From: an uncultured Planctomycetia bacterium
Lineage (GTDB): Bacteria; Omnitrophota; Gorgyraeia; 1-14-0-20-64-10
Length of the DNA: 64,000 bases
Assembly: GCA_964373295.1 (NCBI GenBank)
Contig: CAYJUA010000001.1
Location: 4,608 to 68,607, forward strand
Direction of reading: 5' to 3'
Part shown: positions 1 through 50,350 of the stretch, in pieces
Numbering within the stretch: position 1 is the stretch's first letter
Layout: every line of letters begins with the position of its first letter
Made by a program: the position numbers and the translations under genes
The notes under the pieces: model-generated
Databases searched by the model: none
What the model saw: the letters and a program-made list of their open reading frames with translations, nothing else
What the model was told of the DNA's origin: nothing

Positions 1-506
1 CCGGCTCCGCCGCGATCGACCGCCGGCTCCGCTCCCTGCGGGCCCACGGCAGGCGGGAGGGGCTGGTCCAGGCGGAGCTGGGCCGCAACAGCCGACTGGA
101 TGAGCTCCAGGCCGCCGTGCTCCGGGTGAAGCTGGCGCGGCTCAGGGGGTGGGTCGCGCGGCGGCGGCGGCTGGCCCGCATTTACACGCGGGGGCTGTCC
201 GGCCTGCGCGGCGTGACATGCCCCGCGGAGGCGCCGGGCGCGGAGCACGCGTTCCATCTTTACGTGATCCGGTGCCGCGCGCGCCGGCGCCTGCAGAAGG
301 GCCTGGCGCGCAGGGGGATCGCCTCCCAGGTCTACTACCCGGTGCCGGTGCACCGCCAGCCGACGCACCGGGCGCGGTCGCGCGGCGCGCGCCTCCCTGA
401 AACCGACCGGGCCGCGCGGGAGGCGCTGGCCCTGCCGCTGTTCCCGGAGATGAGGGTGGAGGAGGTGCGGCGCGTCTGCCGCGCGGCGCGGGAGGCGCTG
501 CGCTAG
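1..506 (+). CDS. DegT/DnrJ/EryC1/StrS-family PLP-dependent sugar aminotransferase, C-terminal fragment (5' part outside window)
   Basis: Frame is open from the window edge to TGA 504-506. The translation (...[12 protein letters not shown]...[15 protein letters not shown]...[20 protein letters not shown]...) matches the conserved C-terminal blocks of DegT-type aminotransferases. Confidence 0.7.
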
Positions 507-1714
507 AGGCTGAGCTTGCGGGCGGCGAGGCCTGCGATCGTATCGCCGATCGCGAGCGAGGCGGTCGCGGCCGGGGAAGGGGTGTTGCAGACGTGGAGGG
601 CCCTCTCCCCCTGGATGATCCGGAAGTCGTCCAGGAGCGTCCCATCCGGGTCGACCGCCTGCGCCCGGACGCCGGCCCCCGCCGGGACCAGGTCACCCCG
701 TTCCAGGCAGGGCACCAGCCGCCGCGCCGAGCGCAGGAAGGCCGCCGCGCTGAGAGACCGCCAGCACTCCATCAGCCCCGTCCTCCAGTGACGGCCCGCC
801 ATCCGCCAGAAGCCAGGGTAGAGGGCCACCTCGGCTGCGTCCCGCAGGCTCACATCCGTTTTGCGGTACCCCTCCCGCTTGAGCGCCAGCACGGCGTTTG
901 GGCCCACCTCGACGCGGCCGTCCACGCGCCGGGAGAGGTGCACCCCCAGGAACGGGAAGCGGGGGTCCGGCACCGGGTAAATCAGGCCGCGCACCAGGGA
1001 CCGTTTGGAGGGGACCAGCTCGTAATATTCACCCCGGAAGGGAAGGATCCGCGTCGGGAGGAGGGCCCCGGAGGAGCGCGCCACCCGGTCGGCGTGCAGG
1101 CCCGCGCAATTGATAAGGAAGCGGGCGGAGAATTCGCCCCCGGTGGTTTCCAGCACCACCCCGCCCGGCACCGCGCGGCTGCGCAGGAGGCGGGTCCCGG
1201 TGAAGATCCGGACCCCCAGGCGGCGGGCTTCGGCGGCCATCTCCTCGGCGACCCGGCCGAAATCCACGCTCCAGACATGGGGGACATGGAGGGCGCGGAT
1301 CCCCGCGGCCGAGGGCTCGACCTCCCGCAGCTCTTCCGGGCTGAGGAGGCGCAGGTCCCGCACCCCGTTGGCCTTGCCCCGGTGGTAGAGCTCCTCGAGG
1401 CGGGCGATCTCAGCGGGCTCGATGGCGACAACCACTTTCCCACAGCGGCGAAGAGGGATGCCCCGCTCCTGGCAGAAGCCCACCATCCGCCGCCCTCCCC
1501 GGACGCAGAGCCCGGCCTTGAGGGAGCCCGGGCGGTAATAGATCCCCGAATGGATGACCCCGCTGTTGTGCCCGGTCTGGTGCGAGCCGGGGGCGCTCTC
1601 CTTCTCAAGCAGGGTGAGGCTGAGGCGCGGGAAATCGCGGGCGAGGGCGAGGGCGGCGGCGAGCCCGACAATCCCGCCCCCCACCACCGCCAGATCGGAC
1701 TCCTGAGTCGGCAT
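503..1714 (-). CDS. lhgO: FAD-dependent L-2-hydroxyglutarate oxidase/dehydrogenase-like oxidoreductase
   Basis: 403-aa ORF. N-terminal FAD dinucleotide-binding motif [19 protein letters not shown], plus the segment [23 protein letters not shown] that is typical of LhgO-family enzymes. It is the only convincing minus-strand gene and is convergent with the DegT fragment. Confidence 0.7.
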
Positions 1715-1765: not shown

Positions 1766-4108
1766 ATGCGGATCCTCATCACCGGGGGCGCCGGTTTCAT
1801 CGGCTCGCACCTCACCGAGCGTTTCCTCGCGGAGGGCCACGAGGTCCTCTGCGTGGACAACTTCATCACCGGCGCGGAGAAGAACCTTTCCGGGGCGGAC
1901 GGGAAGAGCTCCTTTCAGCTGGTCCGGCATGACATCAGCCGGCCGCTGGAGGTGGAAGGTTCGGTGGATTTCGTCCTCCATTTCGCGTCGCCCGCCAGCC
2001 CGCCGGACTACATGCGGTACCCCATCCAGACGATGAAGGTGGGCGCCCTGGGAACGCACAACGCCTTGGGGATCGCCAAGGCGAAGAAAGCGAAGTTCCT
2101 GCTGGCCTCCACCTCGGAGGTGTACGGGGACCCGGAGATCCACCCTCAGAAGGAGAGTTATTGGGGCCACGTGAACCCCGTGGGGCCGCGCGGGGTCTAC
2201 GACGAAGCCAAGCGGTTCGCCGAGGCGCTCACCATGGCGTACCACCGGGAGCACGAGGTGGACACCCGGATCGTCCGGATCTTCAACAGTATTCTTGCGG
2301 ATGAGACGGTGGTTCTCTTCAATGAGCGCAAGCTGCATCTGGAGCCCATCGCGGACTACGTGGCCGGTTTGGAGCGCCGTCTGGAGCTCGATCCGCCGAA
2401 GATTCTTGTTCCGTCCTTTGATCCCGAGACCTGCCGAGTGTCTTTGGCGGAAGTCAGCGCGGTCATCAAGCATCCCTGCCAAACCGAGTGCTTTCAGCTC
2501 CATCTTCGCTATGGCCGCAGCGTCAAGGTGACCGGCGATCATAGCGTCTTCACCTGCGATGAAAACGGTGCGCCGATCGCAATCCCTGTTCGTCAATTGC
2601 AGGTTGGCGATTACGTTGCGATCCCTGCAGCCTTGCCTGCCGTCGAAAATGACGTTGAACGCTTTCATCTGGGGGACGCTCTCATGCGAGCCCTACCCGA
2701 AGCTGAGCTGTGGGATTATGTCGTTCAGGCTCCCAGCCTCCGGGCAATCATCGACAGCCGAAGGGACGATCTGCACAGGATCCTTGAGGAAAGCGCGCGC
2801 CTTCAGGCAAAGCGGAGGAAAAACGCTCTGGGATGCGCCGCAAGAAAGTATCTGAAGCAGTCTTTTCTGCCGCTTTATGTCCTCAAGCGGTTGGGGATCG
2901 CTGTCCCCGAGGGGGGTCGGTTGCGGGTCTTCAAGTCGGGTGCGCACATCCGGCTGCCTGCGACGATTGAACTTACCGATGACCTTTTGTGGCTCATCGG
3001 CTTCTTCATCGCGGAAGGCGGCTTCCATTATTCGGCCGGGAAAAGCGCGTACATCTCGTTTTGCTCCAACGGCTACTTGCTTGACCGCGCCGCAAGCATC
3101 CTGCAGGGGTTGGGTTGCCACGTCGTTCGGGTCCCTCCAACTGAGAAAACAGGCCCTGCAGTGACGGCGCATTCCCGGCTTCTCCATCATTTGTTCAAAG
3201 ATGTTTTCGGGGTCGTCGGAGAGGGAAAGAGATTTCCAACATGGATTCTCCAGTTGCCGCTCTCCCGGCTGAAGCATGTCCTGGAAGGTTTCCGGGAAGG
3301 GGACGGCACCCACAGCGGGAAGAAAATGGGCAAGGAGCTTTGTTTCGATACGACCAGCGAGCCTCTAGCCCAGCAACTCCTGTATCTCTTGCTTCGGTTC
3401 GGAATCGTCGGTAGCTTCGGAAAGTACGGCACTACGTTCCGGAAAAAATATGGAGACCGACGGTTCCCGTTCTTCCGCGTGACCATCTGCGAGTTGGATA
3501 ATTTCGATGTTCTCGGTTGGGATCGAGGGGTTCGGCAAACACTTGATGCAAGACGGAAGGGCGACTTGGTGTGGTCCAGAGTGAAGCGGATTGAGCCTTG
3601 TGAACCGACGGGATTTGTCTACGACTTCTCCGTGCCGCAGAGGGAGAATTTTGTGGCTGGAAACGGCGTCTTCTGCCATAACACCTACGGTCCCCGGATG
3701 CGGGAGGAGGACGGCCGCGCCATTCCCAACTTCATCACCCAGGCGCTCGCGGGGAAGCCGGTGACGGTCTTCGGGGGCGGTTCCCAGACCCGGTCGTTCT
3801 GCTACATCTCGGACATGGTCGAGGGGATCGCGCGCCTGATGAAGAGCGATTTGCACGACCCGGTGAATCTGGGGAATCCCAATGAGATGACCCTTCTGGC
3901 CCTGGCGCGGTTCATTCTGCGGCTGAGCGGCAGCAAAAGCCTCATCGAGTTCCGCCCGCTGCCGGTGGACGACCCGAAGGTCCGGTGCCCGGACATTTCC
4001 CGCGCCCGGGAGGTGCTGCGCTGGAGGCCGGCTGTGCCGCTGGAGGAAGGGCTGCTGAAGACGGTCGAGTGGTTCCGCCAGCTTGACACCCGCTTAAAAT
4101 TTCGGTAA
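1766..4108 (+). CDS. UDP-glucuronate decarboxylase (UDP-xylose synthase)-like NAD-dependent epimerase/dehydratase, interrupted in-frame by an intein
   Basis: N-extein [16 protein letters not shown]...YDEAKR...RIVRIFN and C-extein [18 protein letters not shown]...GNPNEMTL... together give a contiguous UXS/ArnA-like SDR with the hallmark RIFNTYGPRM motif once the insert is removed. An alternative in-frame ATG lies at 1748. The AGGA RBS favours 1766. Confidence 0.85.
2288..3682 (+). mobile_element. Intein (465 aa) with LAGLIDADG homing-endonuclease domain, inserted between N and T of the RIFN|TYGPRM motif
   Basis: Starts with Ser1 ([11 protein letters not shown], block A). TxxH block B ([10 protein letters not shown]). 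Dodecapeptide-like blocks [14 protein letters not shown] and [14 protein letters not shown]. Block [18 protein letters not shown]. Terminal ...VFCHN followed by +1 Thr. In frame with no stops. Confidence 0.8.
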
Positions 4109-4182: not shown

Positions 4183-5574
4183 GTGAGGATCGAGGAGTAC
4201 CGGAGCCTTCAACTCCTCCACGAGCTCTCCGAGGATCCCGAAGTGACGCAGCGGGGTCTGGGCCGGAGGGTCGGCTTGGCCCTGGGGCTCATCAACGCCC
4301 ACCTGCACCGCCTGAGCACGCAGGGGCTCATCGAGATCCTGGATGGGAACAGGGGGCGCATCCGCTATCAGATCACGGCCGCCGGGGTGGAGGAGAAGAG
4401 CCACCTGATCGGGGAATACCTCGAATACTCCTTGCATTTCTACCGCGATCTCCGGCGTTTCCTGAGGGAGCGTCTTGTCCAGCTGGCGGGGCAAGGGGTG
4501 CAGCGGATCCTCCTGGTCGGGACGGGCGACCTGGCGGAGGTGGCCTATCTCACGCTGCAGGAAGTGGGCCTGGCCCTTGCCGGGGTGGTGGGGGAAGGAG
4601 AGGGCCGGAGGCAGACCTTCTTCAATCTCCCGGTCCGCGATCTCTCGGCGGCCGGCTCTTTGGAGTTCGACCATGTCATCGTGGCGGCCGAAAAATCCGA
4701 CGGCCGCCTCTCGCGGGAACTGGCCGCCCTGGGCATCCCGCAAAAGAGGGTGATTCTCCTTCCCCACGACCCCTCCTCCTTCGCCGGGCTGGGCCTCAAG
4801 GATTGGTTCGTGCCGAGCTCGGAGAATGGAAGACCTTTGCGTCCCTCGACCACGGATGTGGTGGTCCTCTGCGGCGGGAGGGGGACCCGCCTGGGCTCGC
4901 TGACGGCGGAGACGCCGAAACCGCTCCTCCCCGTGGGGGAGGAGCCGTTTCTCCTGCGCCTCATCGCCCGCCTGAAAAGGGAAGGGTTCACGCGGATCGT
5001 GCTGGCGGCCCACTACCGCCCCGACCAGTTCGAGGCGCTCCTCCAGGAACGGCGGGCCGAGCTCGCCGACGTGGAGCTGGTGGTTGAGCCGGAACCCCTG
5101 GGCACCGGCGGGGCGCTCCGGCACGCCGTGGAGCATGTGCTCAGCCCCGCGTTCGTGGTGCTCAACGGGGACACCTGGGTGCGGCAGCCGCTGGGCCCGG
5201 TGCTGGAGGAGCACGGCACGTTGGGGCGCCAGTTCACCGTGGTCGCGGTGCATTCCTCGCGGGTGGAGGGGGAGCCGCTGAAGAAGGGGGTCTGGCGGAT
5301 CGGGCCCCGGGGCGAGGTGCTGGGGTTCGAGACGCAGGATTCGGTGGCGAACGGATGGGTGAACGCGGGCTGCTACGTGCTGGACCGGGGCATGGTGCAG
5401 GCGTGGCCCGTGGGGTCGTACAGCTTGGAGGCGAACCTCCCGGCGCTCCTCAAGGGGCGAAGGAGCGGCGTGTTCTGCTCGGAGGGAAGGATGCTGGACA
5501 TCGGCATGCCGAGCACTTACGACCGGGCGGCGGCGGTCCTGGAATCCTACGGGTCGATGGAGGTCCTCGCGTGA
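4183..5574 (+). CDS. Three-domain protein: N-terminal winged-helix DNA-binding domain plus Rossmann-like domain (Rex-like arrangement) fused to a sugar-1-phosphate nucleotidyltransferase
   Basis: GTG start. N-terminal section (residues 1-95) looks like a wHTH. A GVQRILLVGTGDLAEVAYL Rossmann-type stretch follows. The C-terminal half has the nucleotidyltransferase signature VVVLCGGRGTRLGSLTAETPKPLLPVGEEPFL and later GWVNAGCYVL. It is a single uninterrupted ORF. Confidence 0.6.
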   Translation: MRIEEYRSLQLLHELSEDPEVTQRGLGRRVGLALGLINAHLHRLSTQGLIEILDGNRGRIRYQITAAGVEEKSHLIGEYLEYSLHFYRDLRRFLRERLVQLAGQGVQRILLVGTGDLAEVAYLTLQEVGLALAGVVGEGEGRRQTFFNLPVRDLSAAGSLEFDHVIVAAEKSDGRLSRELAALGIPQKRVILLPHDPSSFAGLGLKDWFVPSSENGRPLRPSTTDVVVLCGGRGTRLGSLTAETPKPLLPVGEEPFLLRLIARLKREGFTRIVLAAHYRPDQFEALLQERRAELADVELVVEPEPLGTGGALRHAVEHVLSPAFVVLNGDTWVRQPLGPVLEEHGTLGRQFTVVAVHSSRVEGEPLKKGVWRIGPRGEVLGFETQDSVANGWVNAGCYVLDRGMVQAWPVGSYSLEANLPALLKGRRSGVFCSEGRMLDIGMPSTYDRAAAVLESYGSMEVLA

Positions 5575-6731
5575 GCTTGGCCACGTCGGCCCCAGCGGAG
5601 GCCAAGCGGCCTTACCGGATCACGTTCGGGTACATCGAGGTGGGGGCGTCGGGGCGGCGCTGGTTGGAGGAGGCGCTGGACCGGAACTGGGTCTCTGAAG
5701 GCCCCAACGTCCAGCGGTTCGAGGAGCTCTTCGCGAAGCGGTTCGGATACCGGCAGGCGGTGGCGACCAGCTCCGGGACGGACGCCGGGATCGTGGCGAT
5801 GTCGGTGCTGATGGATCGCGGGGTGCAGCGGGGCGACGAGGTGATCACCCCGTCGCTGGCGTTCGTGGCCACGGGGAACTGCATCCTCGCGGCGGGGCTG
5901 ACCCCGAAGTTCGTGGACGTGGAGCTCGGGACCCTCAACATCGACCCGGCCCTCCTTGAGCGGGCGATCACGCCCCGGACGCGCGCCATCCAGGTGGTGC
6001 ACACGATGGGCAAGCCGTGCCGGATGGGCCCGATCCTGGAGGTCGCGCGGAGGCACAAGCTCGCCGTCATCGAGGACTGCTGCGAGGCGCATGGGGCGAC
6101 GCTCAACGGCCAGGTGGTCGGCTCCTTCGGGGAGATGGGGCTCTTCAGCTTCTACGTGGCGCACATCATCTGCAGCGGCGAGGGCGGGATGATCTCCACG
6201 GGCGATGCCGGCCTGGCGCTCCTTTGCCGGTCGGTGCGCAGCCACGGCCGCCGGGGCGGGCAGCTCTATTTCCACTTCGACCGGGTCGGTTACAACTCCA
6301 AGATGAACGACCTGGAGGCGGCCATCGGCCTCGAGGGGTTGGAGTTGTTCGACCGGACCTTCGGCATCCGCCGGCGGCATCTCCAGCGGCTCTGGGAGCG
6401 GCTGGCCCCTCTGGAGGACCGTCTGATCCTGTACCGCGACGGGCCGGGCGAGGTGACCTGCCCCCACGCCTTCCCGCTCGTGCTGCGCGACCCCCGGGCC
6501 TCCATCGAGGGGCTCTATCAGCACCTGGAGAGCCGGGGGATCCAGTGCAAGACGCTGTTCGGATCGCTGCCGGTTCAGCACGACTGCTTCAAGTTCCTCG
6601 GCTACCGCACGGGCAGCTTCCCCGTGGCGGAGCGGATCGGGCGGACCGGCCTTCATTTCGGCGTCCATCAGTATTTGACCGAAGGGGACATCCATTATGC
6701 TGCAGAATGCATCCGGTCCTACTTCAAGTAA
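5571..6731 (+). CDS. DegT/DnrJ/EryC1/StrS-family PLP-dependent sugar aminotransferase
   Basis: GTG start overlaps the upstream stop (GTGA). ...FEELFAKRFGYRQAVATSSGTDAGIVAM..., lysine-containing block FSFYVAHIICSGEGG, and C-terminal ...LPVAERIGRTGLHFGVHQYLTEGDI... are typical of DegT enzymes. Confidence 0.85.
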   Translation: MSLATSAPAEAKRPYRITFGYIEVGASGRRWLEEALDRNWVSEGPNVQRFEELFAKRFGYRQAVATSSGTDAGIVAMSVLMDRGVQRGDEVITPSLAFVATGNCILAAGLTPKFVDVELGTLNIDPALLERAITPRTRAIQVVHTMGKPCRMGPILEVARRHKLAVIEDCCEAHGATLNGQVVGSFGEMGLFSFYVAHIICSGEGGMISTGDAGLALLCRSVRSHGRRGGQLYFHFDRVGYNSKMNDLEAAIGLEGLELFDRTFGIRRRHLQRLWERLAPLEDRLILYRDGPGEVTCPHAFPLVLRDPRASIEGLYQHLESRGIQCKTLFGSLPVQHDCFKFLGYRTGSFPVAERIGRTGLHFGVHQYLTEGDIHYAAECIRSYFK

Positions 6732-8802
6732 GCCGCTGAAGACAGCCGAGGCGGCTCCCTTCGGAAACGGGGAGGGCCTGCGCCTCTACCGGAAGCTGAT
6801 CCTGTCCCGCCGGGCGGAGGAGAGGGTCCGCAGGGAATACCCCGGCGACGAGATGAAGACGCCGGTTCATCTGGGCGTCGGCCAGGAGGCGATCCCGGTC
6901 GGCGTTTGCTCTGTCCTTCCTCCCGGGACGCGGGCGTTCGGGACCTACCGGAACCACGCCCTGTACCTCTCCCTCACCGACGACGTGGATGGTTTCTTCG
7001 GGGAACTCTACGGCCGGGCCACGGGGCCGGGCAAGGGCAAAGCCGGCTCCATGCATTTGACTTATCCGGAGCGCGGCTTGATGGCCACCTCCGCGGTGGT
7101 CGGCACCACCCTCCCGCTTGCCGTCGGCGCGGCCCTGGCCAACGCCTACCGGAAGAGCCCCGCTTGGGTGGTGGCCTTCTTCGGGGATGGCGCGGCGGAG
7201 GAAGGCGCTTTCTGGGAAAGCCTCAATTTCGCCTGCCTGCGGCGCCTGCGGATCCTCTTCGTGTGCGAAGACAACGGATTGGCCATCCACACCTCAACCC
7301 CTCAGCGGCAGGGCTTCCGCTCGATCCCGGAGGCGGTGCAGGGGTTTGAATGCCATGTGGACAGCCAGGATGGGAGCGACCTCGCGGCGGTCGTCGCCTC
7401 CACCCGGCGGATGCTGGAGCGGATGGAGAGGGATCCCAAGCCCGGCTTCCTGCACTTCACCTATTTCCGCTTCCTCGAGCACGTGGGACCCCGGGAGGAT
7501 TTTGAGGCGGGATATCGGCGCCGCCCCACGCCGGAGGAGATGGAGCGCCTGGATCCCGTTTCCCGGTTCGAGAAGGCCCTTTGCCGGAACGGCTGCACCC
7601 CGGCGGACCTGCAGCGGGTCCAGTCGGAGGTGGACAGCCGGATCGACCGCGCGGTGCAGGGCGCCCGGACGGCCGCGTTCGCCCCGCCCGCCGAGCTGTA
7701 CACGGATCTCTTCGCCGAGGCGCAGCACGCCCAAGCCCGGCCCGATGCGCCCGAGATCCCGAGGGCGCAGATCTCCTTCCGGCAGGCCCTGACGCTGGCC
7801 CTGCGCAGGGAGATGGAGTCCGACCCGGAGGTTTTTGTTTTCGGGCTGGACGTGCCCGACCACAAGCGGATTTTCGGGAGCACGGCCGGGCTGGTGGAGC
7901 AGTTCGGACCGGAGCGCTGTTTCGGCACCCCTCTTTCGGAGGAGGCGATGACCGGGGTCGCGCTGGGCGCCGCCATCTCCGGCCTGCGCCCCGTCCATGT
8001 CCACATCCGGGCCGATTTCATGCTGCTGGCCATGAACCAGATCGTCAACATGATCTCGAACCTCCGCTACATGACCGGTGGGCGGCTCCGGATCCCCCTG
8101 GTCATCCGGGCGGTGATCGGGCGTGGCTGGGGCCAATCCGCGCAGCACAGCAAGACGCTCCACGGCATCCTCAGCCATTTCCCGGGGCTCAAGGTGGTGA
8201 TGCCATCGACCCCCCAGGACGCGTACAGCCTGCTCCGCTCCTCTGTCCGGGACGACAACCCGGTCATCTTCCTGGAGCACCGGTGGCTTTACGACGTCGT
8301 CGGCGAGGTGGACGAAGCCAAGGCCATCCCGCTGGGGCTCCCCGCCCTCCGGCGCCGCGGCGGAGCCCTGACGGTGGTCAGCACCTCCTGGATGACGGTG
8401 GAGGCCTTGAAGGCGGCGGAGGTCCTTTCCCGGAAGCAGGGGGTGGAGCTGGAGGTCGTGGATGTCCGGACCGTCTCGCCCCTGGACGTGGAGCCGATGG
8501 TGGAGTCGGTCCGGAAGACCCGCCACTGCATCGTGGCCGACTACGACTGGGCATTCTCGGGCTTCTCCGCGGAGCTGGCGGCGCAGATTGGCCATCGCTG
8601 CTTCGGGATCTTAAAGAAGCCGGTGGAACGGCTGGGGTTCGCCCATGTCCCGTGCCCGACGACGCGGCCGCTGGAAAACCTCTTTTACCCCTCCGCCGTC
8701 CACATCATCCGGACGGCCGAGAAGATGCTGGGCCTGTCCGAGCAGGACCTGTCGGGAGAATCGTTCTACAGCTATGAGCACAAGTTCAAGGGGCCCTTCT
8801 GA
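6697..8802 (+). CDS. Fused thiamine-diphosphate-dependent 2-oxoacid dehydrogenase E1 component (alpha and beta subunits in one 701-aa chain)
   Basis: Alpha part: LRLYRKLILSRRAEERV...GDGAAEEGAFWESLNFA (TPP-binding GDG motif). Beta part: ...FGLDVPDHKRIFGSTAGLVEQFGPERCFGTPLSEEAMTGVALGAAISGLRP...MPSTPQDAYSLL... The start overlaps the upstream gene by 35 nt, so a later start is possible. Confidence 0.8.
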   Translation: MLQNASGPTSSKPLKTAEAAPFGNGEGLRLYRKLILSRRAEERVRREYPGDEMKTPVHLGVGQEAIPVGVCSVLPPGTRAFGTYRNHALYLSLTDDVDGFFGELYGRATGPGKGKAGSMHLTYPERGLMATSAVVGTTLPLAVGAALANAYRKSPAWVVAFFGDGAAEEGAFWESLNFACLRRLRILFVCEDNGLAIHTSTPQRQGFRSIPEAVQGFECHVDSQDGSDLAAVVASTRRMLERMERDPKPGFLHFTYFRFLEHVGPREDFEAGYRRRPTPEEMERLDPVSRFEKALCRNGCTPADLQRVQSEVDSRIDRAVQGARTAAFAPPAELYTDLFAEAQHAQARPDAPEIPRAQISFRQALTLALRREMESDPEVFVFGLDVPDHKRIFGSTAGLVEQFGPERCFGTPLSEEAMTGVALGAAISGLRPVHVHIRADFMLLAMNQIVNMISNLRYMTGGRLRIPLVIRAVIGRGWGQSAQHSKTLHGILSHFPGLKVVMPSTPQDAYSLLRSSVRDDNPVIFLEHRWLYDVVGEVDEAKAIPLGLPALRRRGGALTVVSTSWMTVEALKAAEVLSRKQGVELEVVDVRTVSPLDVEPMVESVRKTRHCIVADYDWAFSGFSAELAAQIGHRCFGILKKPVERLGFAHVPCPTTRPLENLFYPSAVHIIRTAEKMLGLSEQDLSGESFYSYEHKFKGPF

Positions 8803-8815
8803 TGAGCTCCGATCC

Positions 8816-9781
8816 ATGAAGAGCATTTTCGTGCCGGGGCACACCGGTTTGGTGGGTTCGGCGCTGTGCCGGCGGTGGGCAGGCCGGCCGGGACTCCGGG
8901 TCATCACCGCGCCGCGGCGCGAGCTGGACCTGGCCGACTCCGCCGCGGTGAAAGGGTTCCTCCAGCGGGAGAAGCCGGAGGCGGTGGTGATCGCCGCCGG
9001 CAGGGTGGGCGGGATCCGGGCGAACGACTCGCGGCCGGCGGAGTTCATCCACGACAACCTGATGATCGAGGCGAATCTCATCCACGGGGCCTGGAAGGCG
9101 GGGATCCGCCTTCTCCTCAACTTCGGGAGCGGCTGCATGTACCCCCGGGAGTGCCCGCAGCCGATGGCTCCGGAGCACCTGATGTCAGGCCCGATGGAGC
9201 CGACCAGCGAGCCGTATTCCCTGGCGAAGCTGGCCGGCTGGATCCTGTGCCGGTCATACAACCGGCAGTACGGGACCCGGTATGTGACGGCGATCCCCTC
9301 CTCGGTGTACGGGCCGGGCGACAACTTCGATCCGGAAGCGGGGCATGTGCTCTCAGGGCTCCTGCGGAAGTTCCACGAGGCGAAGGAAGAGGGACGAGGG
9401 CACGTCACGCTCTGGGGCACGGGGAAGGCTCGCCGCGAGTTCATCTACGCGGATGACCTGGCCGAGGCCTGCGAGCTGCTCCTGGAAAAGCACCCGGGAG
9501 ACGAGCCCATCAACGTGGGCACGGGAGAGCCGGTGAGCATCCGGGAGCTGGCAGGGCTCATCGCGGAAGGGGTGGGTTTTAAAGGCAGGGTCGAGTGGGA
9601 TCCTTCCCGGCCCGATGGCGCTCCGGCCAAGCGGCTGGATTCCCGGCCGCTGCGGGCGATGGGGTGGTCTCCGCGGACGGGTTTAAGGGAAGGGCTGGAG
9701 AGGACGTACGCGTGGTTCCTGCAGAGTGCGGCCGGGAGCCCGGAAGGGCGGGCGGCCGCACAGGCGGGCGTTGAGAGGTGA
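8816..9781 (+). CDS. fcl: GDP-L-fucose synthase-like NDP-4-keto-6-deoxyhexose 3,5-epimerase/4-reductase
   Basis: MKSIFVPGHTGLVGSAL...RELDLADSAAV...FIHDNLMIEANLIHGAWKAGIRLL...PTSEPYSLAKLAG...YNRQYGTRY...VYGPGDNFDPEAGHVLSGLLRKFHEA...TLWGTGKARREFIYADDLAEA is colinear with Fcl/WcaG. The ORF start in the track lies upstream in junk. ATG 8816 is in frame and follows the E1 stop. Confidence 0.75.
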   Translation: MKSIFVPGHTGLVGSALCRRWAGRPGLRVITAPRRELDLADSAAVKGFLQREKPEAVVIAAGRVGGIRANDSRPAEFIHDNLMIEANLIHGAWKAGIRLLLNFGSGCMYPRECPQPMAPEHLMSGPMEPTSEPYSLAKLAGWILCRSYNRQYGTRYVTAIPSSVYGPGDNFDPEAGHVLSGLLRKFHEAKEEGRGHVTLWGTGKARREFIYADDLAEACELLLEKHPGDEPINVGTGEPVSIRELAGLIAEGVGFKGRVEWDPSRPDGAPAKRLDSRPLRAMGWSPRTGLREGLERTYAWFLQSAAGSPEGRAAAQAGVER

Positions 9782-9785
9782 CCGG

Positions 9786-10748
9786 ATGAGAGGATCCAAC
9801 GGACAGGCCGGCGGCTTCAAGGTCCTCGTCACCGGTGGTGCGGGATACATCGGATCCGTCCTCGTGCCGATGCTCCTCGAGGAGGGGCATCAGGTGACGG
9901 TGATGGACAACTTCATGTACGGGCAGACGTCGCTGCTGGACTGCTGCCACCGGGCGAACCTCGCGGTGGTGCGCGGCGACGCGCGGGACGAGCGGGTGGT
10001 GCGGCCCCTGGTTAGCCAAGCGGACGTGGTCCTGCCGCTGGCCTGCCTGACGGGGGCGCCGCTGTGCGAGAAGGATCCCGCGCAGGCCCGGCAGGTGAAC
10101 CTCGACGCCGTCCGCGCCGTCACGCAGTGGAAATCCCGCGGCCAGCGGATCATCTTCCCGACGACCAACAGCGGGTACGGGATCGGGCAGGATGGGATCC
10201 ACTGCACGGAGGAGACGCCCCTGCGGCCGATCTCCACGTACGGGCGCCTCAAGGTGGACGCCGAGAAGGCGGTCCTGGACGCGGGAAACAGCATCACCTT
10301 CCGCCTGGCCACGGCCTTCGGGATCAGCCCCCGGATGCGGCTGGACCTGCTGGTCAACGATTTCGTCTACCGGGCGGTAACGGACGGTTTCCTGGTGCTC
10401 TTCCAGGCGCATTTCAAGCGGAACTACATCCACGTCCGGGACATCGGCGGGGCCTTCCTCCATGCCATCGGCAGCTTCGACGCGATGAAGGGCCATGCCT
10501 ACAACGTGGGCTTGAGCGACGCGAACCTCTCCAAGCGGGAGCTCTGCGAGGAGATCAAGAAGCAGGTCCCGCGGTTCTACTTCATCGAGGCGGAGGTCGG
10601 GGAGGACCCCGACAAACGGAACTACATTGTCAGCAACGAGAAGATGGAGCGGACCGGCTTCAAGCCGGAGGTCTCCCTGCGGGAAGGCATCGCGGGGCTG
10701 ATCAAGGGCTATCAGGTGATTCGCCGGATGCAGTTCGCCAACGCGTAG
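9786..10748 (+). CDS. NAD-dependent sugar epimerase/dehydratase family protein
   Basis: FKVLVTGGAGYIGSVLVPMLLEEGHQVTVMDNF... Rossmann N-terminus. YxxxK region ISTYGRLKVDAEK. Confidence 0.75.
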   Translation: MRGSNGQAGGFKVLVTGGAGYIGSVLVPMLLEEGHQVTVMDNFMYGQTSLLDCCHRANLAVVRGDARDERVVRPLVSQADVVLPLACLTGAPLCEKDPAQARQVNLDAVRAVTQWKSRGQRIIFPTTNSGYGIGQDGIHCTEETPLRPISTYGRLKVDAEKAVLDAGNSITFRLATAFGISPRMRLDLLVNDFVYRAVTDGFLVLFQAHFKRNYIHVRDIGGAFLHAIGSFDAMKGHAYNVGLSDANLSKRELCEEIKKQVPRFYFIEAEVGEDPDKRNYIVSNEKMERTGFKPEVSLREGIAGLIKGYQVIRRMQFANA

Positions 10749-10757
10749 GAGGGGCCG

Positions 10758-11825
10758 ATGATCATCTGCCGGACGCCCTTCCGGATCTCCTTTTTCGGCG
10801 GCGGGACGGATTACCCCGCCTGGTACCGGGAGAACGGGGGGGCCACGCTGGTGACGACGATCAGCAAGTACTGCTACATCACCTGCCGCTGGCTGCCTCC
10901 TTTCTTCCAGCACCGCAGCCGGATTGTTTGGTCGAAGATCGAGCTGGTGCGGGAGACCGGGGAGATCGAGCACCCCGCGGTGCGTGAGGCGCTGCAGCAC
11001 CTCCACATTCGGCACGGGATCGAGATCCACCACGACGGCGACCTCCCGGCTCGAACCGGCCTGGGGTCGAGCTCCGCCTTCACGGTGGGCCTCCTTCACG
11101 CCCTCTACGGCCTGAAGGGGGTCATGCCGAGCAAGCGGCAGCTCGCGCTGGAGGCGATCCGCGTGGAGCAGGGGTGGCTCCAGGAGAATGTGGGGTGCCA
11201 GGACCAGGTGGCGGCGGCCTTCGGAGGCTTCAACCGGATCGATTTCGAGCGCAACGATGGGATCCAGGTTTCCCCGATCCTCTTGGATCCGGGTCGGCTG
11301 GTGGAGCTCCAGAGCCGCCTGATGCTTTACTACACGGGGATCTCGCGGACCGCTTCGGAAATCGCCGGCGAGCAGATCAAGGCGACTTCCCGCAAGAAGG
11401 AGGAGCTTCGGGCGATCTACGGGATGGTGGATGAGGCGGTGCGGATCCTGCAGAGCGGCGAGGATTTGAAGGCCTTCGGGCGGATTCTCCACGAAAGCTG
11501 GAAGCTCAAACGGTCGCTCACCCCGCGGATCTCGACCCCCATGATCGATCAGCTCTACGAAACCGCCCGGGCTGCGGGAGCCACCGGCGGGAAGATCCTG
11601 GGGGCCGGAGGCGGGGGGTTCCTGCTGCTCTTCGTCGAACCGGATCGCCAGCCGGAGGTCCGCGAGGCCCTGGGACAACTGCTGCACGTCCCGGTGCAGT
11701 TCGAGAGCTCTGGGAGCCGAATCATCTTCTATGACCCGGACGGCTACGATCCGGAGGAGGGGGTGGCGCAGCAGCAGCGAACGGGGAGTTCTCCGGAACA
11801 AGAAGGGATTTTGACCCCGGGATGA
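10758..11825 (+). CDS. GHMP-family sugar kinase (HddA / fucokinase-like)
   Basis: MIICRTPFRISFFGGGTDYPAWY N-terminus and GHMP motif PARTGLGSSSAFTVGLLHAL. Strong AGGAGG RBS upstream. Confidence 0.75.
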   Translation: MIICRTPFRISFFGGGTDYPAWYRENGGATLVTTISKYCYITCRWLPPFFQHRSRIVWSKIELVRETGEIEHPAVREALQHLHIRHGIEIHHDGDLPARTGLGSSSAFTVGLLHALYGLKGVMPSKRQLALEAIRVEQGWLQENVGCQDQVAAAFGGFNRIDFERNDGIQVSPILLDPGRLVELQSRLMLYYTGISRTASEIAGEQIKATSRKKEELRAIYGMVDEAVRILQSGEDLKAFGRILHESWKLKRSLTPRISTPMIDQLYETARAAGATGGKILGAGGGGFLLLFVEPDRQPEVREALGQLLHVPVQFESSGSRIIFYDPDGYDPEEGVAQQQRTGSSPEQEGILTPG

Positions 11826-12625
11826 CGGCGCTCTCTGGAGGGGCCCAAACGGTTGCCGCTGGGAGCGGGGTCGGGGCGACGCAGCGGCGTCTGAAGTACA
11901 CGATGCTGGTCATGACGCTCAACGAGATCGAGGGAATGAAGGTGATCATGCCCCGGGTGCGCGGGGAGTGGCTTGACCAGATCATCGTGGTGGACGGGGG
12001 CTCCTCCGACGGCACCATCGAGTGGGCCCGGGAGCGCGGCTATGAGGTCCATGTGCAGCAGCGTCCGGGTTTCCGAAGCGCCTACCAGGAGGTGTGGCCG
12101 AAGGTTTCCGGGGACGTGGTGATCTACTTCACACCCGATGGAAATACCGTGCCGGAGGCGATCCCACAGCTCATCGAGAAAATGGAGGAGGGATACGACC
12201 TCGTGATCGGGTCCCGCTACCTGGGCGACGCGAAGTCCCTGGATGACGACGCGGTGACCTCCTTCGGGAACTGGCTGTTTCGCACGCTGACCAATCTGCT
12301 GCTGAAGCCTCGGGGCTCTCCCCGGATGACCGATCCCATGATCATGTTCCGAGCGCACCGCAGGGACCTCCCCCATCGGCTGGGGCTGGATCGGCCGGAG
12401 CCGTTCGAGGGGCTCGAGCATCTCTTCAGGACCCGGGTGGACTGGATCCCCCTGATGAGCATGCGGGCCCTGAAATGGGGAGCCCGGTGGACCGAGATCC
12501 CGGCGGATGAACCGCCCCGGATCGGAGGGGAGAGGAAGCTCCAGATCCTCAAGTGGGGAGCGGTCTTCCTTCTTCAGCTCCTGCGGGAGGCGGTCTCGGG
12601 ATCCCGGAAAGCGCCGCTGGCCTAG
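11822..12625 (+). CDS. Family-2 glycosyltransferase (polyprenyl-phosphate sugar synthase / DPM-synthase-like)
   Basis: ATGA overlap with the kinase. MLVMTLNEIEG...VVDGGSSDGT...DLVIGSRYLGDAKS pattern of GT2 DPM1-like enzymes. Confidence 0.7.
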   Translation: MTALSGGAQTVAAGSGVGATQRRLKYTMLVMTLNEIEGMKVIMPRVRGEWLDQIIVVDGGSSDGTIEWARERGYEVHVQQRPGFRSAYQEVWPKVSGDVVIYFTPDGNTVPEAIPQLIEKMEEGYDLVIGSRYLGDAKSLDDDAVTSFGNWLFRTLTNLLLKPRGSPRMTDPMIMFRAHRRDLPHRLGLDRPEPFEGLEHLFRTRVDWIPLMSMRALKWGARWTEIPADEPPRIGGERKLQILKWGAVFLLQLLREAVSGSRKAPLA

Positions 12626-12645
12626 CGGAAGGCAGGAAGCTCCCC

Positions 12646-17270: not shown

Positions 17271-17319
17271 GCGGAACCTGTGTTATCATAACCCAATCCG
17301 ATAGGGAGGCTTACCCCTC
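17271..17319 (+). promoter_or_regulatory. AT-rich palindromic motif GTTATcATAAC and GGGAGG RBS upstream of the pseB-like gene
   Basis: The palindrome at about 17283-17293 resembles the TATCATATAAC element upstream of the UXS gene. GGGAGG lies about 9 nt before ATG 17320. Confidence 0.3.
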
Positions 17320-18330
17320 ATGATTCTCAAAGAGAAGGTGGTTCTGGTCACCGGAGGCACCGGTTCCTTTGGAAGGAAATTCACCGAGACCGTCCTGCGG
17401 GACCACTCTCCCAAGAAGCTGATCATCTTCAGCCGGGATGAGTGGAAACAGTCGGAGATGGCGCACCAGTTCAACGATCCCCGCGTGCGTTTTTTCCTGG
17501 GGGACGTGCGGGATAAGGACCGGCTGGAGCGGGCGTTCGACGGCGTTCAGGTGGTCGTGCACGCCGCGGCGCTGAAGCAGATCCCCACGGCGGAATACAA
17601 TCCGTTAGAGGTGATCAAAACCAATGTTCTGGGCGCGGCCAACGTGATCGACGCCGCCATCGACCGAGGGGTCGAGCAGGTGGTGGCCCTCTCGACCGAC
17701 AAGGCGGCCAACCCGATCAACCTCTACGGGGCCAGCAAGCTTTGCTCCGACAAGCTCTTCATCGCCGCCAACGTTTACTCGGGGCCCCACCGGGCCAAAT
17801 TCAGCGTGGTGCGCTATGGCAACGTGGTGGGCAGCCGGGGCAGCGTGATCCCCCTCTTCCTGAAGCGCCGGGAGACCGGCAGGATCCCCCTCACCGACCG
17901 GCGGATGACCCGTTTCTGGATCACCTTGGAGCAGGGGGTTCAGCTGGTTCTGCATGCCCTGGCGGGGATGCACGGCGGCGAGATCTTCGTCCCCAAAGTC
18001 CCCAGCATGACGCTGGTGGACCTGGCTGAGGCGATCGCGCCGGACTGCAAGCAGGAGATTGTGGGCATCCGTCCGGGAGAGAAGCTCCACGAGGTCATGA
18101 TCACCACCGATGACTCCCGCCGGACGGTGGAGATGCCTGAATTCTACGTCATCCAACCCGATTTTCCCGCGATCCATCCCGGTTCCAACTGGGAAGAGGG
18201 GAAACCGGTTCCTGCCGGTTTCTCCTACACCAGCGATTCCAACACGCAGTGGCTCAGCAAGGCGGAGCTGCTGAAGCTGGTCGGCCAGGTGGAAGGGGTT
18301 CTGCAGGAAGCGGGCAGGGATGGGGACTGA
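17320..18330 (+). CDS. pseB: UDP-N-acetylglucosamine 4,6-dehydratase (inverting), PseB/FlaA1/CapD-like
   Basis: MILKEKVVLVTGGTGSFGRKF...LIIFSRDEWKQSEM...YGASKLCSDKLF... is about 336 aa and colinear with PseB-type short-form dehydratases. Confidence 0.7.
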   Translation: MILKEKVVLVTGGTGSFGRKFTETVLRDHSPKKLIIFSRDEWKQSEMAHQFNDPRVRFFLGDVRDKDRLERAFDGVQVVVHAAALKQIPTAEYNPLEVIKTNVLGAANVIDAAIDRGVEQVVALSTDKAANPINLYGASKLCSDKLFIAANVYSGPHRAKFSVVRYGNVVGSRGSVIPLFLKRRETGRIPLTDRRMTRFWITLEQGVQLVLHALAGMHGGEIFVPKVPSMTLVDLAEAIAPDCKQEIVGIRPGEKLHEVMITTDDSRRTVEMPEFYVIQPDFPAIHPGSNWEEGKPVPAGFSYTSDSNTQWLSKAELLKLVGQVEGVLQEAGRDGD

Positions 18331-20017
18331 GGAATATTTTTATCAGCGCTTCCGCGACGGCGAGGCGCTGAGCTCCGCCGGGCCCCGGCTCACGACCGGG
18401 GGATCCGCCGCCGAGTTCCCGTCCCGCCCTGAGGGGCTTAAGATCCTCCTGATCAATGCTCCCATCCGGGAGTGGTCTTATCCCAACATCATGCCCATCG
18501 GGCATGGGTACGTGGCTTCCGTCGCCCTCATGGACGGGCACACCGTGGACGTGCTGGATCTCAACGCGGAGCGGCGGCGGCCGATGAAGCGCTCTCCCGA
18601 AGAGATCGCCCGGTGGATCGAAGAGCGGGTGGAGGCCAAGCTCAGCGCCCCCAAGCCGGAGGTCATCGGGCTGGGCGGGATCGTGACGCAGTACAGCCAC
18701 ATCCGGCGGATCTCGCGGATCTGCCGCTCGGTCTATCCCGACGTCTTCCAGGTGCTGGGCGGCGGGATCGGATCCTCCCTGCCGCTCTTCATGGTGAAGC
18801 GGATCGGCGTGGACGCGGTGGTCCAGGAGGAGGGGGAGGTGACCTTCTCGGAGCTGCTCCACCGGCTGGAGGCCGGCGCTCCCCTGGAGGGACTGAAAGG
18901 ATTGGCGTACCGGCGGCAGATTCGGCCCGGGGAATGGGACTACCGGGACAACGGCCTGCGGCCCTCGGTGAAGACCCGCGCCCTTGGCCTCGACGCCCTG
19001 CCGTGGCCGCACCGGGAGCCCTGGCCCCTGGACGACGTTTACAAGCTCAACCCCGTGGGCCACCTGAACTGGCGGACGAAATGGATCGACGGCTCTCCGG
19101 TCTGCGAAGGGCAATACTCGGAGTCGATGATCGCCTCGCGGGGGTGCCCTTACGCCGCCACCGCGTGCGATTACTGCTATGCCGCGTACCTCAGCAAGCA
19201 GTACCGCCTGCGCAGCCCCCAGGACATCGTTGACGAGATGGTTTTCCTCAAGGAGCGGTACGGGCTCACCTACATCCATTTCCTGGACGACCTGATGATG
19301 ACCGACTACCGCTGGGCGCTGGAGTTCTGCGCGGGGCTGCGCGAGCGCCGAAGGGATACCGGCTTCGAGGTCCTCTGGGGGGGCACCTGCCGGACGAACA
19401 TCGTGGCCGACGACGTGATCCGCGCGAAAAAGGAGGGGCGGCCGCACATGCTGGAACAGGCCTACGAGGTGGGAATGCGCCAAGCCGGCTACGGGGTGGA
19501 ATCGGCCAGCCCCACGATCCTCAAGTCCATCGATAAGAGCGGCCAAACCGTCGAGAAGATGGAGATCGCCATCTCCGAGACCAAGCGGATCATGGGGTAC
19601 GCCGACTGCTCCTTCATGATCGGCTCTCCGGGGGAAAGCCGGCAGACGGTGCAGGAGACGGTAGACTTCTGCCGGAAGGTGGGCTTAAAGCCGGAGGTAT
19701 TCTTCTTCACCACGGCCTATCCCGCCACGACCTTCTGGCAGGTGGCGCTGGACCGCGGGCTCATCGCCAAGGCGGTGACCGGCAAGGCAGGCCCGGCAGA
19801 CGAGGATACGGTCGAAGAATACCTGGTCCGGCTGGGGGAGCAGGGGGAAGAGGTCCGCACAAACTTCAGCGATCTGCCGGACGAAGAGGTGATCGACCTC
19901 TCCTGGTGGGCGATCAACGAGCTGGGCGCCCAGAACACGGTGCGGCACCCCCACACCGGAGAAGAGCAGCCGCTTCAGAAGGCCGCCGTCCGCGGGGCCA
20001 GCAGAGCCGACCTGTAG
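18320..20017 (+). CDS. B12-binding-domain radical SAM enzyme (class B), with an atypical Cys spacing
   Basis: N-terminal cobalamin-binding-like domain (LKILLINAPIREWSYPNIMPIGHGYVASVAL...). Radical-SAM core with ASRGCPYAATACDYCYAAY, which gives a CX7CX2C spacing instead of canonical CX3CX2C. Length 565 aa. Confidence 0.65.
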   Translation: MGTEEYFYQRFRDGEALSSAGPRLTTGGSAAEFPSRPEGLKILLINAPIREWSYPNIMPIGHGYVASVALMDGHTVDVLDLNAERRRPMKRSPEEIARWIEERVEAKLSAPKPEVIGLGGIVTQYSHIRRISRICRSVYPDVFQVLGGGIGSSLPLFMVKRIGVDAVVQEEGEVTFSELLHRLEAGAPLEGLKGLAYRRQIRPGEWDYRDNGLRPSVKTRALGLDALPWPHREPWPLDDVYKLNPVGHLNWRTKWIDGSPVCEGQYSESMIASRGCPYAATACDYCYAAYLSKQYRLRSPQDIVDEMVFLKERYGLTYIHFLDDLMMTDYRWALEFCAGLRERRRDTGFEVLWGGTCRTNIVADDVIRAKKEGRPHMLEQAYEVGMRQAGYGVESASPTILKSIDKSGQTVEKMEIAISETKRIMGYADCSFMIGSPGESRQTVQETVDFCRKVGLKPEVFFFTTAYPATTFWQVALDRGLIAKAVTGKAGPADEDTVEEYLVRLGEQGEEVRTNFSDLPDEEVIDLSWWAINELGAQNTVRHPHTGEEQPLQKAAVRGASRADL

Positions 20018-20028
20018 TGGCATTCGCG

Positions 20029-23078: not shown

Positions 23079-23091
23079 CGCAGAGGGGGAG

Positions 23092-25342: not shown

Positions 25343-25932
25343 AGAGCCCCTTCCTGGTCGGGAAGAAGTGCTACCTGCGGCCGTTCGAGGAGTCGGACCT
25401 GCACGACGACTACGCCGCCTGGTTCAATGATCCGGCCATCACGCGGTACCTGGGGATGGGAAAATTCCCGGTCAGCCGGGAGGGCCTGCGCCTGTCGCTG
25501 GACCGGTTCCGAAACTCCACGAGCGACATCCTCCTGGCGATCATCGACGCCAAGACCGAAACCCACATCGGCAACGTGGCTCTGAACCGGATCAACTGGG
25601 TGCACCGGACCGCGGACACCGGCCTCGTGATCGGGCGCAAGGAATTCTGGGGGAAAGGGTACGCGACCGAGGCCTGGGCGTTGCTGGTGCGCTACGCGTT
25701 CGACACCCTCAACCTCCACAAGGTGATCGCCACGGTGGTGGGCGGCCACGACAGCAGCCAGGCGGCGCTGGAGAGGATCGGTTTCAAGGTGGAGGGGAGA
25801 TGCCGGGAGGAATTCTACGTGGACGGGGAGTACCACGACTACATCCGGCTGGGGCTGCTCCGGGGCGATCTCGCGCCGAAGCCGGTGAACGGAGAGAAGG
25901 CGGCCGCCGCCAACTCTAAGAGGGGACGGTGA
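25339..25932 (+). CDS. GNAT-family N-acetyltransferase (PseH/RimL-like)
   Basis: ATGA overlap with the synthase. ...HIGNVALNRINWVHRTADTGLVIGRKEFWGKGYATEAWALLVRYAFDTLNLHKV... is an acetyl-CoA-binding GNAT core. Confidence 0.75.
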   Translation: MKSPFLVGKKCYLRPFEESDLHDDYAAWFNDPAITRYLGMGKFPVSREGLRLSLDRFRNSTSDILLAIIDAKTETHIGNVALNRINWVHRTADTGLVIGRKEFWGKGYATEAWALLVRYAFDTLNLHKVIATVVGGHDSSQAALERIGFKVEGRCREEFYVDGEYHDYIRLGLLRGDLAPKPVNGEKAAAANSKRGR

Positions 25933-48640: not shown

Positions 48641-48644
48641 GTCG

Positions 48645-50342: not shown

Positions 50343-50350
50343 AAGCAGCC

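Follow-up and report, generated by a model that had tools for sequence, protein, structure and literature searches.

What does an enzyme built like the E1 component of pyruvate dehydrogenase (PDH) do in the midst of genes for sugar-nucleotide metabolism? The question is raised by a 64,000-nucleotide stretch of DNA, referred to here as the window, from an uncultured Planctomycetia bacterium assigned by GTDB to the Omnitrophota (assembly GCA_964373295.1, contig CAYJUA010000001.1, positions 4,608 to 68,607). In this window, a single open reading frame (ORF) encodes the fused alpha and beta parts of an E1-type, thiamine diphosphate (ThDP)-dependent enzyme, placed between genes for a DegT-family protein and an Fcl-like epimerase/reductase (Table 1). 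A preliminary description of these genes had proposed that the enzyme takes part in making a two-carbon branched amino-deoxy sugar. The branching idea survives as the best-supported reading, while the amino part and the weight given to the fusion do not. We consider it somewhat probable, from the gene content and the literature on homologues, that the protein is an E1-type carboligase working without E2 and E3 partners within a GDP-heptose modification pathway, where it would add a two-carbon branch.

The E1-type enzyme and its family

The 701-amino-acid (aa) protein contains the three domains that define the heterotetrameric alpha/beta type 2-oxoacid dehydrogenase E1 superfamily and is a member of it. 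Pfam places E1_dh at residues 33-328 (E=5e-42), Transket_pyr at 358-532 (2.6e-31) and Transketolase_C at 552-670 (9.9e-25). Searches with phmmer align the N-terminal half with solved E1 alpha chains of PDH and branched-chain keto acid dehydrogenase (BCKDH; 1e-27) and the C-terminal half with solved E1 beta chains (1e-66), the closest matches being pyruvate-specific E1s, not 2-oxoglutarate or branched-chain enzymes. In enzymes of this type, the GDG...N motif binds ThDP and Mg, a Glu of the beta chain activates the cofactor and one His in each chain is catalytic. When the protein is aligned with human E1 alpha and Geobacillus E1 beta, this catalytic set is intact, with GDGAAEEG...CEDN, LEH, PLSEE and AQHS in place and with equivalents of the alpha His (human His263), beta Glu59 and beta His128. 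A 33-sequence alignment of the family shows no variation in the ThDP motif, the alpha His or the Glu and His of the beta chain.

The fused chain reported in the preliminary description is borne out by the Pfam domains, by the alignments and by the public gene calls for the contig, which list the identical three proteins of 701, 386 and 320 aa (E1, DegT and Fcl-like). The tight linkage of these genes holds as well. The sole in-frame start of the E1 ORF is the ATG at 6697, preceded by AAGGGG, and the DegT stop codon (TAA, 6729-6731) falls within the E1 ORF, giving an overlap of 35 nt. On the upstream side, the nucleotidyltransferase gene ends in a TGA that shares bases with the GTG start of the DegT gene (GTGA at 5571-5574), and on the downstream side the ATG of the Fcl-like gene, at 8816, lies 13 nt past the E1 stop. 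The window has a G+C content of about 67%, and nearly every gene is on the + strand.

Relatives of the enzyme are widespread. In a scan using one genome per species, they were found in more than 590 species-level genomes, spanning Nitrospira, Planctomycetia, Omnitrophota, Verrucomicrobia, Patescibacteria, cyanobacteria, Rickettsiales and Pelagibacteraceae, as well as some metagenome-assembled genomes (MAGs) of archaea and a small number of cultured proteobacteria and Bacteroidota. Cultured carriers include Marinomonas aquimarina CECT 5080, Catenovulum maritimum Q1, Mucilaginibacter sp. PPCGB 2223, Rhodospirillum sp. A1_3_36 and Floridaenema fluviatile BLCC-F154. The comparisons cover 87 related loci (designated by L numbers), with L001 and L010 lying on the same contig, and 80 were counted as genome loci; since many contigs are incomplete, the counts of accompanying genes out of 80 are lower bounds. 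The E1 gene lies between genes that would form keto-sugars, namely a Cj1427-like C4-dehydrogenase and a ColD-type 3-dehydratase, and this context recurs in most of the 80 genomes. The smallest recurring module (L003, L005 and L007) consists of a short-chain dehydrogenase/reductase (SDR) of the 4-keto-forming type, the E1, a DegT protein with His in place of the catalytic Lys and a B12-binding radical-SAM enzyme.

The fusion of the two chains, which had been presented as a distinguishing feature, is real but incidental. It occurs in 21 of the 87 loci, and its recurrence in 20 independent contigs from several phyla shows that it is no sequencing artefact. However, just 14 of the 80 genome loci carry a fused gene, most relatives having separate alpha and beta genes, and two genes are found even in close relatives whose beta parts are 75-79% identical, which rules the fusion out as a functional hallmark.

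Several observations separate the family from housekeeping dehydrogenases. The 701-aa protein falls below the NCBIfam cut-offs for PDH E1 alpha (218.6 bits against 393.85) and for two PDH E1 beta models (289.7 against 321, and 259 against 454), and a neighbour-joining tree built from the beta parts places the family in a clade apart from the only two outgroups, the classical E1 beta sequences of Geobacillus and human PDH, both copied from PDB alignments. Nearly all members end in F[KR]GPF, a tail present in 84 E1 beta or fused ORFs (in L003-L087, and at 8788-8799 in the window), not shared by the PDH E1 beta chains of Geobacillus and human, and located where the Geobacillus chain ends. The C-terminal region of E1 beta helps to bind the subunit-binding domain of E2. 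The preliminary description had set the enzyme apart from housekeeping metabolism, a distinction upheld by the sub-threshold scores and the separate clade, and had named, as the findings that would speak against it, a tight grouping with housekeeping acetoin/pyruvate dehydrogenase E1 and an E2/E3 partner encoded nearby. No such partner was found: Pfam detected no Biotin_lipoyl, 2-oxoacid_dh or Pyr_redox domain in the approximately 40 proteins spanning the whole 64-kb window, and a crude motif scan of the window and the 87 related loci returned neither the E3 disulfide motif nor the E2 motif DHRxxDG. Pfam scans of the window revealed glycan-related functions only, including pseudaminic-acid-type genes, numerous glycosyltransferases and methyltransferases, an ABC exporter and a phosphoenolpyruvate (PEP) mutase.

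A predicted sugar 3-dehydratase beside the E1 gene

The protein encoded upstream of the E1 had been described as a DegT aminotransferase. Its membership of the DegT family stands, but the aminotransferase function does not, because the catalytic Lys is replaced by His. In the alignment of FSFYVAHIICSGEGG (window DegT) with FSFFGNKIITTGEGG (GDP-perosamine synthase), a His faces the catalytic Lys, the site being marked by a Lys-to-Ala mutant in the PDB; the window protein contains the motif FSFYVAH. As established in work on ColD and E1-dehydrase, a Lys-to-His change turns the DegT fold into a C3-dehydratase dependent on pyridoxamine phosphate (PMP). The window protein is therefore predicted to be a sugar 3-dehydratase of the ColD/RfbH type, removing an oxygen and adding no amine, and its product to be a 3-deoxy sugar and not an amino sugar.

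Conservation of this residue is consistent with the prediction. The His is kept in all six E1-adjacent DegT orthologues that were aligned, from other phyla, and an E1-linked His-type DegT is present in 47 of the 80 loci (directly adjacent in 25), compared with only 4 for the Lys-type, so that in these loci too the predicted sugar is 3-deoxy and not amino. The best NCBIfam match of the window protein is RfbH, a CDP-sugar 3-dehydrase (236 bits, cut-off 423). Of the solved structures, GDP-perosamine synthase comes nearer to it (206 bits) than ColD does (151), with ColD and E1-dehydrase structures scoring 151-157 bits. A distant, cyanobacterial DegT orthologue has ColD as its best PDB match, and its His lies opposite the site of the His-to-Asn variant 3B8X, which we take to be H188 of ColD.

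Some related loci hold a second, divergent pair of split E1 alpha/beta genes without the F[KR]GPF tail (L002 18827-22073, L019 15229-17096 and L068). The pair in L002 adjoins a DegT gene whose product has Lys at the catalytic position according to a MAFFT alignment, a cruder BLAST-based call having given Asn; with the Lys-type protein, this arrangement resembles the branch-then-transaminate logic described for kibdelomycin.

Genes pointing to a GDP-heptose substrate

The substrate is suggested by genes that were overlooked in the preliminary description, encoding a Cj1427-like dehydrogenase, an L-2-hydroxyglutarate oxidase (LhgO) and HddA/HddC-like proteins, which together point to a GDP-heptose. 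Residues 12-319 of the SDR encoded downstream of the Fcl-like gene align with residues 4-311 of PDB 6VO6, which we take to be Cj1427 of Campylobacter jejuni, a GDP-heptose C4-dehydrogenase. Cj1427 orthologues reaching 50% identity or more occur in 28 of the 80 loci. As a Cj1427 orthologue in which, on reading the sequence, TTN replaces the acid/base pair of the dehydratases, this SDR is ruled out as a 4,6-dehydratase.

Cj1427 converts 2-oxoglutarate to L-2-hydroxyglutarate as a by-product of its reaction (PMC10680097). The LhgO gene of the window, transcribed divergently, suggests a dedicated recycling of this by-product to 2-oxoglutarate, and homologues with 36-60% identity lie beside E1 genes in 9 of the 87 loci from different phyla, including cyanobacteria, Verrucomicrobia, Omnitrophota, Nitrospiraceae and others. 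Raushel's group has combined Cj1427 with a C3-dehydratase dependent on pyridoxal phosphate (PLP) to obtain GDP-D-glycero-3-deoxy-4-keto-heptose in vitro (PMC10680097; see PMC10440746). Judging from the two protein sequences, the window appears to encode this very pair natively.

Formation of the GDP-sugar is the proposed role of the nucleotidyltransferase (present in 42 of the 80 loci), whose top NCBIfam matches are mannose-1-phosphate guanylyltransferase and HddC, both below cut-off, and anomeric phosphorylation en route to it is proposed for the GHMP-family kinase, found in 51. Genes of the SIS (GmhA-like) and HAD (GmhB-like) types are present in several related loci. The Fcl-like protein matches PDB 8DU0 with 328 bits, with the catalytic residues S..C, YxxxK and His aligned, and Fcl-like genes occur in 56 of the 80 loci; the protein is a candidate reductase for a stage later than dehydration and the E1 reaction, and may or may not also epimerise C5.

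Table 1. Features of the window around the E1-type gene, in order of position
Feature	Coordinates	Strand	Basis and remarks
L-2-hydroxyglutarate oxidase (LhgO) equivalog	503..1714	-	NCBIfam NF008726, 526 bits vs cut-off 299
Winged-helix (MarR/EPS-type) domain + sugar-1-phosphate nucleotidyltransferase, ManC/HddC-like	4183..5574	+	Pfam HTH_24 + NTP_transferase
DegT-family PLP/PMP enzyme with His for catalytic Lys; predicted ColD/RfbH-type C3-dehydratase	5571..6731	+	Pfam DegT_DnrJ_EryC1 5.9e-90
Fused E1 alpha-beta ThDP enzyme	6697..8802	+	Alpha ~residues 1-340, linker 341-358, beta ~359-701; tail FKGPF
Fcl-like (GDP-L-fucose synthase family) epimerase/reductase	8816..9781	+	NCBIfam GDP-fucose synthase 391.8 bits vs cut-off 500
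Cj1427-like SDR, putative C4-dehydrogenase	9786..10748	+	410 bits, full-length, ~60% identity by eye to PDB 6VO6/6VO8
GHMP-family sugar kinase, HddA-like	10758..11825	+	Pfam GHMP_kinases_N/C; NCBIfam HddA 134 bits, below cut-off
Small GT2 glycosyltransferase resembling polyprenyl-phosphate sugar synthases	11822..12625	+	Pfam Glycos_transf_2
Two paralogous large membrane proteins	12553-14949, 14829-17270	+	~800 aa each, ~37% identical over C-terminal parts
B12-binding radical-SAM enzyme, candidate C-methyltransferase	18320..20017	+	Pfam B12-binding + Radical_SAM

Proposed pathway and its significance

The use of E1-type enzymes for C2 branching of sugars has been established or proposed for AviB1/B2 (avilamycin), Pau11/12 (paulomycin), the aldgamycin enzyme and KbDH (kibdelomycin) (PMC4425429, PMC4753412, PMC12247030), and KbDH couples pyruvate to ketones in vitro (PMC12247030). 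The precedent on which the preliminary description drew, branching from pyruvate by AviB1/B2-type pairs, is thus found in the literature for Pau11/12 and the KbDH alpha and beta proteins as well. The acceptor of YerE, a ThDP enzyme of yersiniose biosynthesis, is CDP-3,6-dideoxy-4-keto-glucose, supplied by a His-type dehydrase (PMC9306805), and the product of Cj1427 and the C3-dehydratase is the same kind of 3-deoxy-4-keto compound (PMC10680097, PMC9306805).

By analogy with these homologues, the Cj1427-like enzyme would oxidise C4 of the GDP-heptose while reducing 2-oxoglutarate to L-2-hydroxyglutarate, a conversion that the LhgO homologue would reverse, and the His-type DegT protein would then strip the C3 hydroxyl as ColD does, yielding GDP-3-deoxy-4-keto-heptose. 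The E1 alpha-beta enzyme would decarboxylate pyruvate on ThDP and add the resulting hydroxyethyl carbanion to the C4 ketone, the product being a 4-C-acetyl tertiary alcohol and thus a nine-carbon branched sugar. The Fcl-like SDR would reduce and/or epimerise this product, a role that an aldo-keto reductase (AKR) may fill in other lineages: AKR genes lie near the E1 in 10 of the 80 loci, and the branch ketoreductase of paulomycin biosynthesis, Pau7, is an AKR (PMC4753412). Methyl groups could perhaps be added by B12-radical-SAM enzymes, and the GT2 glycosyltransferase and the membrane proteins would hand the sugar on to a surface glycan.

The best-supported reading describes the pathway as a route for GDP-heptose oxidation, 3-deoxygenation and branching that is widespread in uncultured lineages. 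A broader proposal is more tentative, and we hold it to be possible rather than probable: that the E1 clade marked by F[KR]GPF, with LhgO closing the cofactor cycle, defines a very widespread pathway that supplies cell-surface glycans with a new class of C-branched nine-carbon sugars, in the form of 4-C-acetyl- or 4-C-hydroxyethyl-3-deoxy-heptoses, possibly C-methylated.

To our knowledge, C-branching by E1-type ThDP enzymes has so far been documented only for actinomycete antibiotics, and surface polysaccharides are thought to use YerE-type enzymes; a literature search for E1 genes in O-antigen clusters returned nothing useful. Should this clade carry out such branching on GDP-heptoses, higher-carbon sugars with branches would be a common surface feature of environmental bacteria that are abundant and for the most part uncultured, and biocatalysis would gain a large new set of carboligases forming tertiary alcohols. 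A further suggestion from the locus is that L-2-hydroxyglutarate oxidase is a physiological partner of the unusual ping-pong dehydrogenase Cj1427.

Alternative explanations

The protein could be an E1 of the ordinary kind, belonging to a pyruvate or acetoin dehydrogenase, that lies in the island by chance, with its E2 and E3 encoded elsewhere, and might, for example, provide acetyl-CoA for glycan acetylations. We regard this as very improbable. Its nearest solved structures are indeed the alpha and beta chains of PDH E1, and the His residues of lipoamide chemistry are conserved, but the scores below the PDH equivalog cut-offs, the clade distinct from the two classical E1 beta sequences and the extra invariant tail, in the very region that serves to bind E2, set it apart; no E2 or E3 was detected in the 64 kb or the 87 loci, and the family is always found amid sugar-nucleotide genes, genome-reduced lineages included. 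Within a sugar pathway, the same carboligation might use another donor or position, with 2-oxoglutarate or hydroxypyruvate giving a longer or hydroxylated branch, or with another keto intermediate as the acceptor. No sequence feature fixes the donor, 2-oxoglutarate is made and used by the reactions of the neighbouring Cj1427-, ColD- and LhgO-type proteins (PMC10680097), and YerE-type enzymes with C4-C8 donors are known (PMC9306805); this variant nevertheless seems unlikely, as every known branching enzyme of the E1 type (alphaKADH2) gives a C2 branch, KbDH took only pyruvate (PMC12247030) and the top matches of the window protein are pyruvate-specific E1s. About equally unlikely is a sugar pathway that is complete without the E1 and ends in a 3-deoxy-heptose, the E1 making an acyloin- or acetyl-type substituent or acting on a substrate other than a sugar. 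Cj1427, a C3-dehydratase and C4-reductases do form GDP-3-deoxy-heptoses in vitro without any ThDP enzyme (PMC10680097), and the Fcl-like protein retains all the epimerase/reductase residues of GDP-fucose synthase. However, the E1 gene lies between the dehydratase and Fcl-like genes, overlapping the former, and its presence goes along with that of His-type DegT genes in many phyla, and the small module of L003, comprising a 4-keto-forming SDR, E1, His-type DegT and radical-SAM enzyme, holds little else that could supply the E1 with a substrate.

Branching of a GDP-heptose by the E1-type enzyme has itself to be set against a number of points that weigh on the other side. The Cj1427-like, ColD-like and Fcl-like enzymes already make up a complete, colitose-like pathway to a 3-deoxy-heptose, in which the E1 is not logically required, and the alpha and beta His residues that serve lipoamide acetylation in classical E1s are kept in the 701-aa protein; an E2 gene could sit beyond the sequence covered by the window and the 87 loci. 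As to the heptose, the scores of the kinase and the nucleotidyltransferase lie far under the cut-offs for HddA and HddC, this window contains no homologue of GmhA or GmhB, and the naming of the dehydrogenase follows from our identification of 6VO6. The likeness of the enzyme to AviB, Pau and KbDH proteins, as E1 alpha/beta homologues without E2/E3 among deoxysugar genes, is drawn from their published descriptions. Finally, a 1019-aa protein of a Planctomycetia MAG (P0018, L001/L010 5379-8438), which looked like a Rosetta-stone fusion of E1 alpha, E1 beta and Fcl, was rejected as a frameshift, probably an assembly error: it lacks the FKGPF tail, and its linker RENPSTAMNSALRG is tail-coding DNA read out of frame, in the frame of the window ORF 8645-9781. 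As a frameshift artefact, it lends no support to a linkage of E1 and Fcl.

Other genes of the island

Genes farther downstream may serve the transfer and modification of the sugar. The GT2 protein, kept in 14 of the 80 loci, matches NCBIfam models of AglJ, dolichyl-phosphate hexose transferase and ArnC-like enzymes, all below cut-off, and possibly puts the finished sugar on a lipid carrier. The two membrane proteins that follow it have no Pfam or NCBIfam match; in L001 and L009, too, the GT2 gene is followed by homologues. They are possibly transferases of lipid-linked sugars of an undescribed kind, and their membership in the system is tentative. The B12-binding radical-SAM enzyme has relatives in 30 of the 80 loci, directly beside the E1 and His-type DegT genes in L003, L005 and L007.

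Between the LhgO and nucleotidyltransferase genes lies a gene (1766-4108, +) for a UDP-glucuronate-decarboxylase-like SDR, which on account of this likeness is ruled out as a 4,6-dehydratase. Its 315-aa extein is split at RIFN|TYGPRM by a 465-aa intein (2288-3682) with Ser1, a C-terminal His-Asn, Thr at +1 and LAGLIDADG-type endonuclease blocks, over which the G+C content falls to 0.59, against about 0.67 elsewhere. In L002, the B12-radical-SAM gene of the same pathway (14930-17674) also holds an intein (Pfam Hint/Intein_splicing), so that inteins are found in two different genes of the glycan pathway, in different organisms.

Nonulosonic-acid-type genes occupy positions 17320-27956 and 61808-62587 (+) and encode a PseB equivalog (515 bits), a B12-radical-SAM enzyme, a Gfo/Idh/MocA oxidoreductase, a fusion of a cytidylyltransferase with a class-III aminotransferase, NeuB, a GNAT protein, a PFTS-motif protein and a second CMP-transferase. 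No gene for a DegT of the Lys type (PseC) turned up in the window, and the DegT protein encoded beside the E1, lacking the catalytic Lys, is ruled out as the PseC of these pseudaminic-acid-type genes (PseB, NeuB, GNAT). A phosphonate module at 46755-53123 (+) begins with a helix-turn-helix (HTH) nucleotidyltransferase gene and comprises a PEP mutase-nucleotidyltransferase fusion (48489-50342), an Fe-alcohol dehydrogenase (50351-51484) and an LtaS/sulfatase-like transferase (51459-53123); the window ORFs that were scanned included no phosphonopyruvate decarboxylase. Two sugar nucleotidyltransferases of the island (+) carry an N-terminal DNA-binding domain, of the MarR/EPS type at 4183-5574 and of the HTH_3 type at 46755-47924, which hints that they also regulate it.

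Comparison with known systems

The E1 of PDH (Geobacillus 1W85/3DUF, human 1NI4) shares with the 701-aa protein its fold, domain order, ThDP motif and catalytic Glu and His, whereas the latter falls below the family cut-offs, has no E2/E3 partner in the sequence analysed, carries an extra C-terminal tail and belongs to a sugar-pathway context. In colitose biosynthesis, ColD and ColC present the arrangement of the window, in which a DegT dehydratase of the His type is succeeded by an epimerase/reductase of the Fcl family that works on a GDP-4-keto sugar, but no C-C bond is formed, and GDP-mannose enters the route through a 4,6-dehydratase, an enzyme that the window lacks. The enzymes for the capsular heptoses of C. 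jejuni (Cj1427, the C3-dehydratase of HS:5, Cj1428 and other C4-reductases) have counterparts in the window, in the form of the Cj1427 orthologue, an enzyme of the PLP-dependent C3-dehydratase type, the Fcl-like reductase and the HddA/HddC-like genes for activation (PMC10680097, PMC10440746). Unlike the window, the C. jejuni pathways described do without a ThDP enzyme, an L-2-hydroxyglutarate oxidase and a B12-radical-SAM enzyme, and the pairing of Cj1427 with the C3-dehydratase is an artificial one, made in vitro.

The AviB, Pau and KbDH systems consist of separate alpha and beta proteins encoded in secondary-metabolite clusters of Actinobacteria, often near a gene for a branch ketoreductase or an aminotransferase, and work on (d)TDP-hexoses or glycosylated intermediates. 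The window enzyme differs from them in being fused, in belonging to surface-glycan islands of many phyla and some archaea, in its association with GDP-heptose-type genes and a ColD-like dehydratase, and in its F[KR]GPF tail.

The yersiniose pathway (DdhC/RfbH, YerE and YerF) follows the same logic, with a PMP-dependent 3-dehydratase that has His for Lys, a ThDP enzyme that attaches a C2 unit of pyruvate to C4 and a reductase that completes the branch (PMC9306805, PMC4753412). It differs in that YerE is a single-chain flavoprotein resembling acetolactate synthase, that the substrate is a CDP-hexose and that the dehydrase depends on a partner E3 reductase and on an Fe-S cluster, unlike the window DegT protein, which resembles ColD or perosamine synthase. 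In the Pfam search, the YerE-type TPP_enzyme_N/M/C architecture was not present in the 701-aa protein, which gave just a partial, sub-threshold match to TPP_enzyme_C. It is the meeting, in one locus, of the acceptor logic of the YerE route with an E1-type catalyst that leads us to propose a sequence of C4 oxidation, C3 dehydration, acetyl transfer and reduction.

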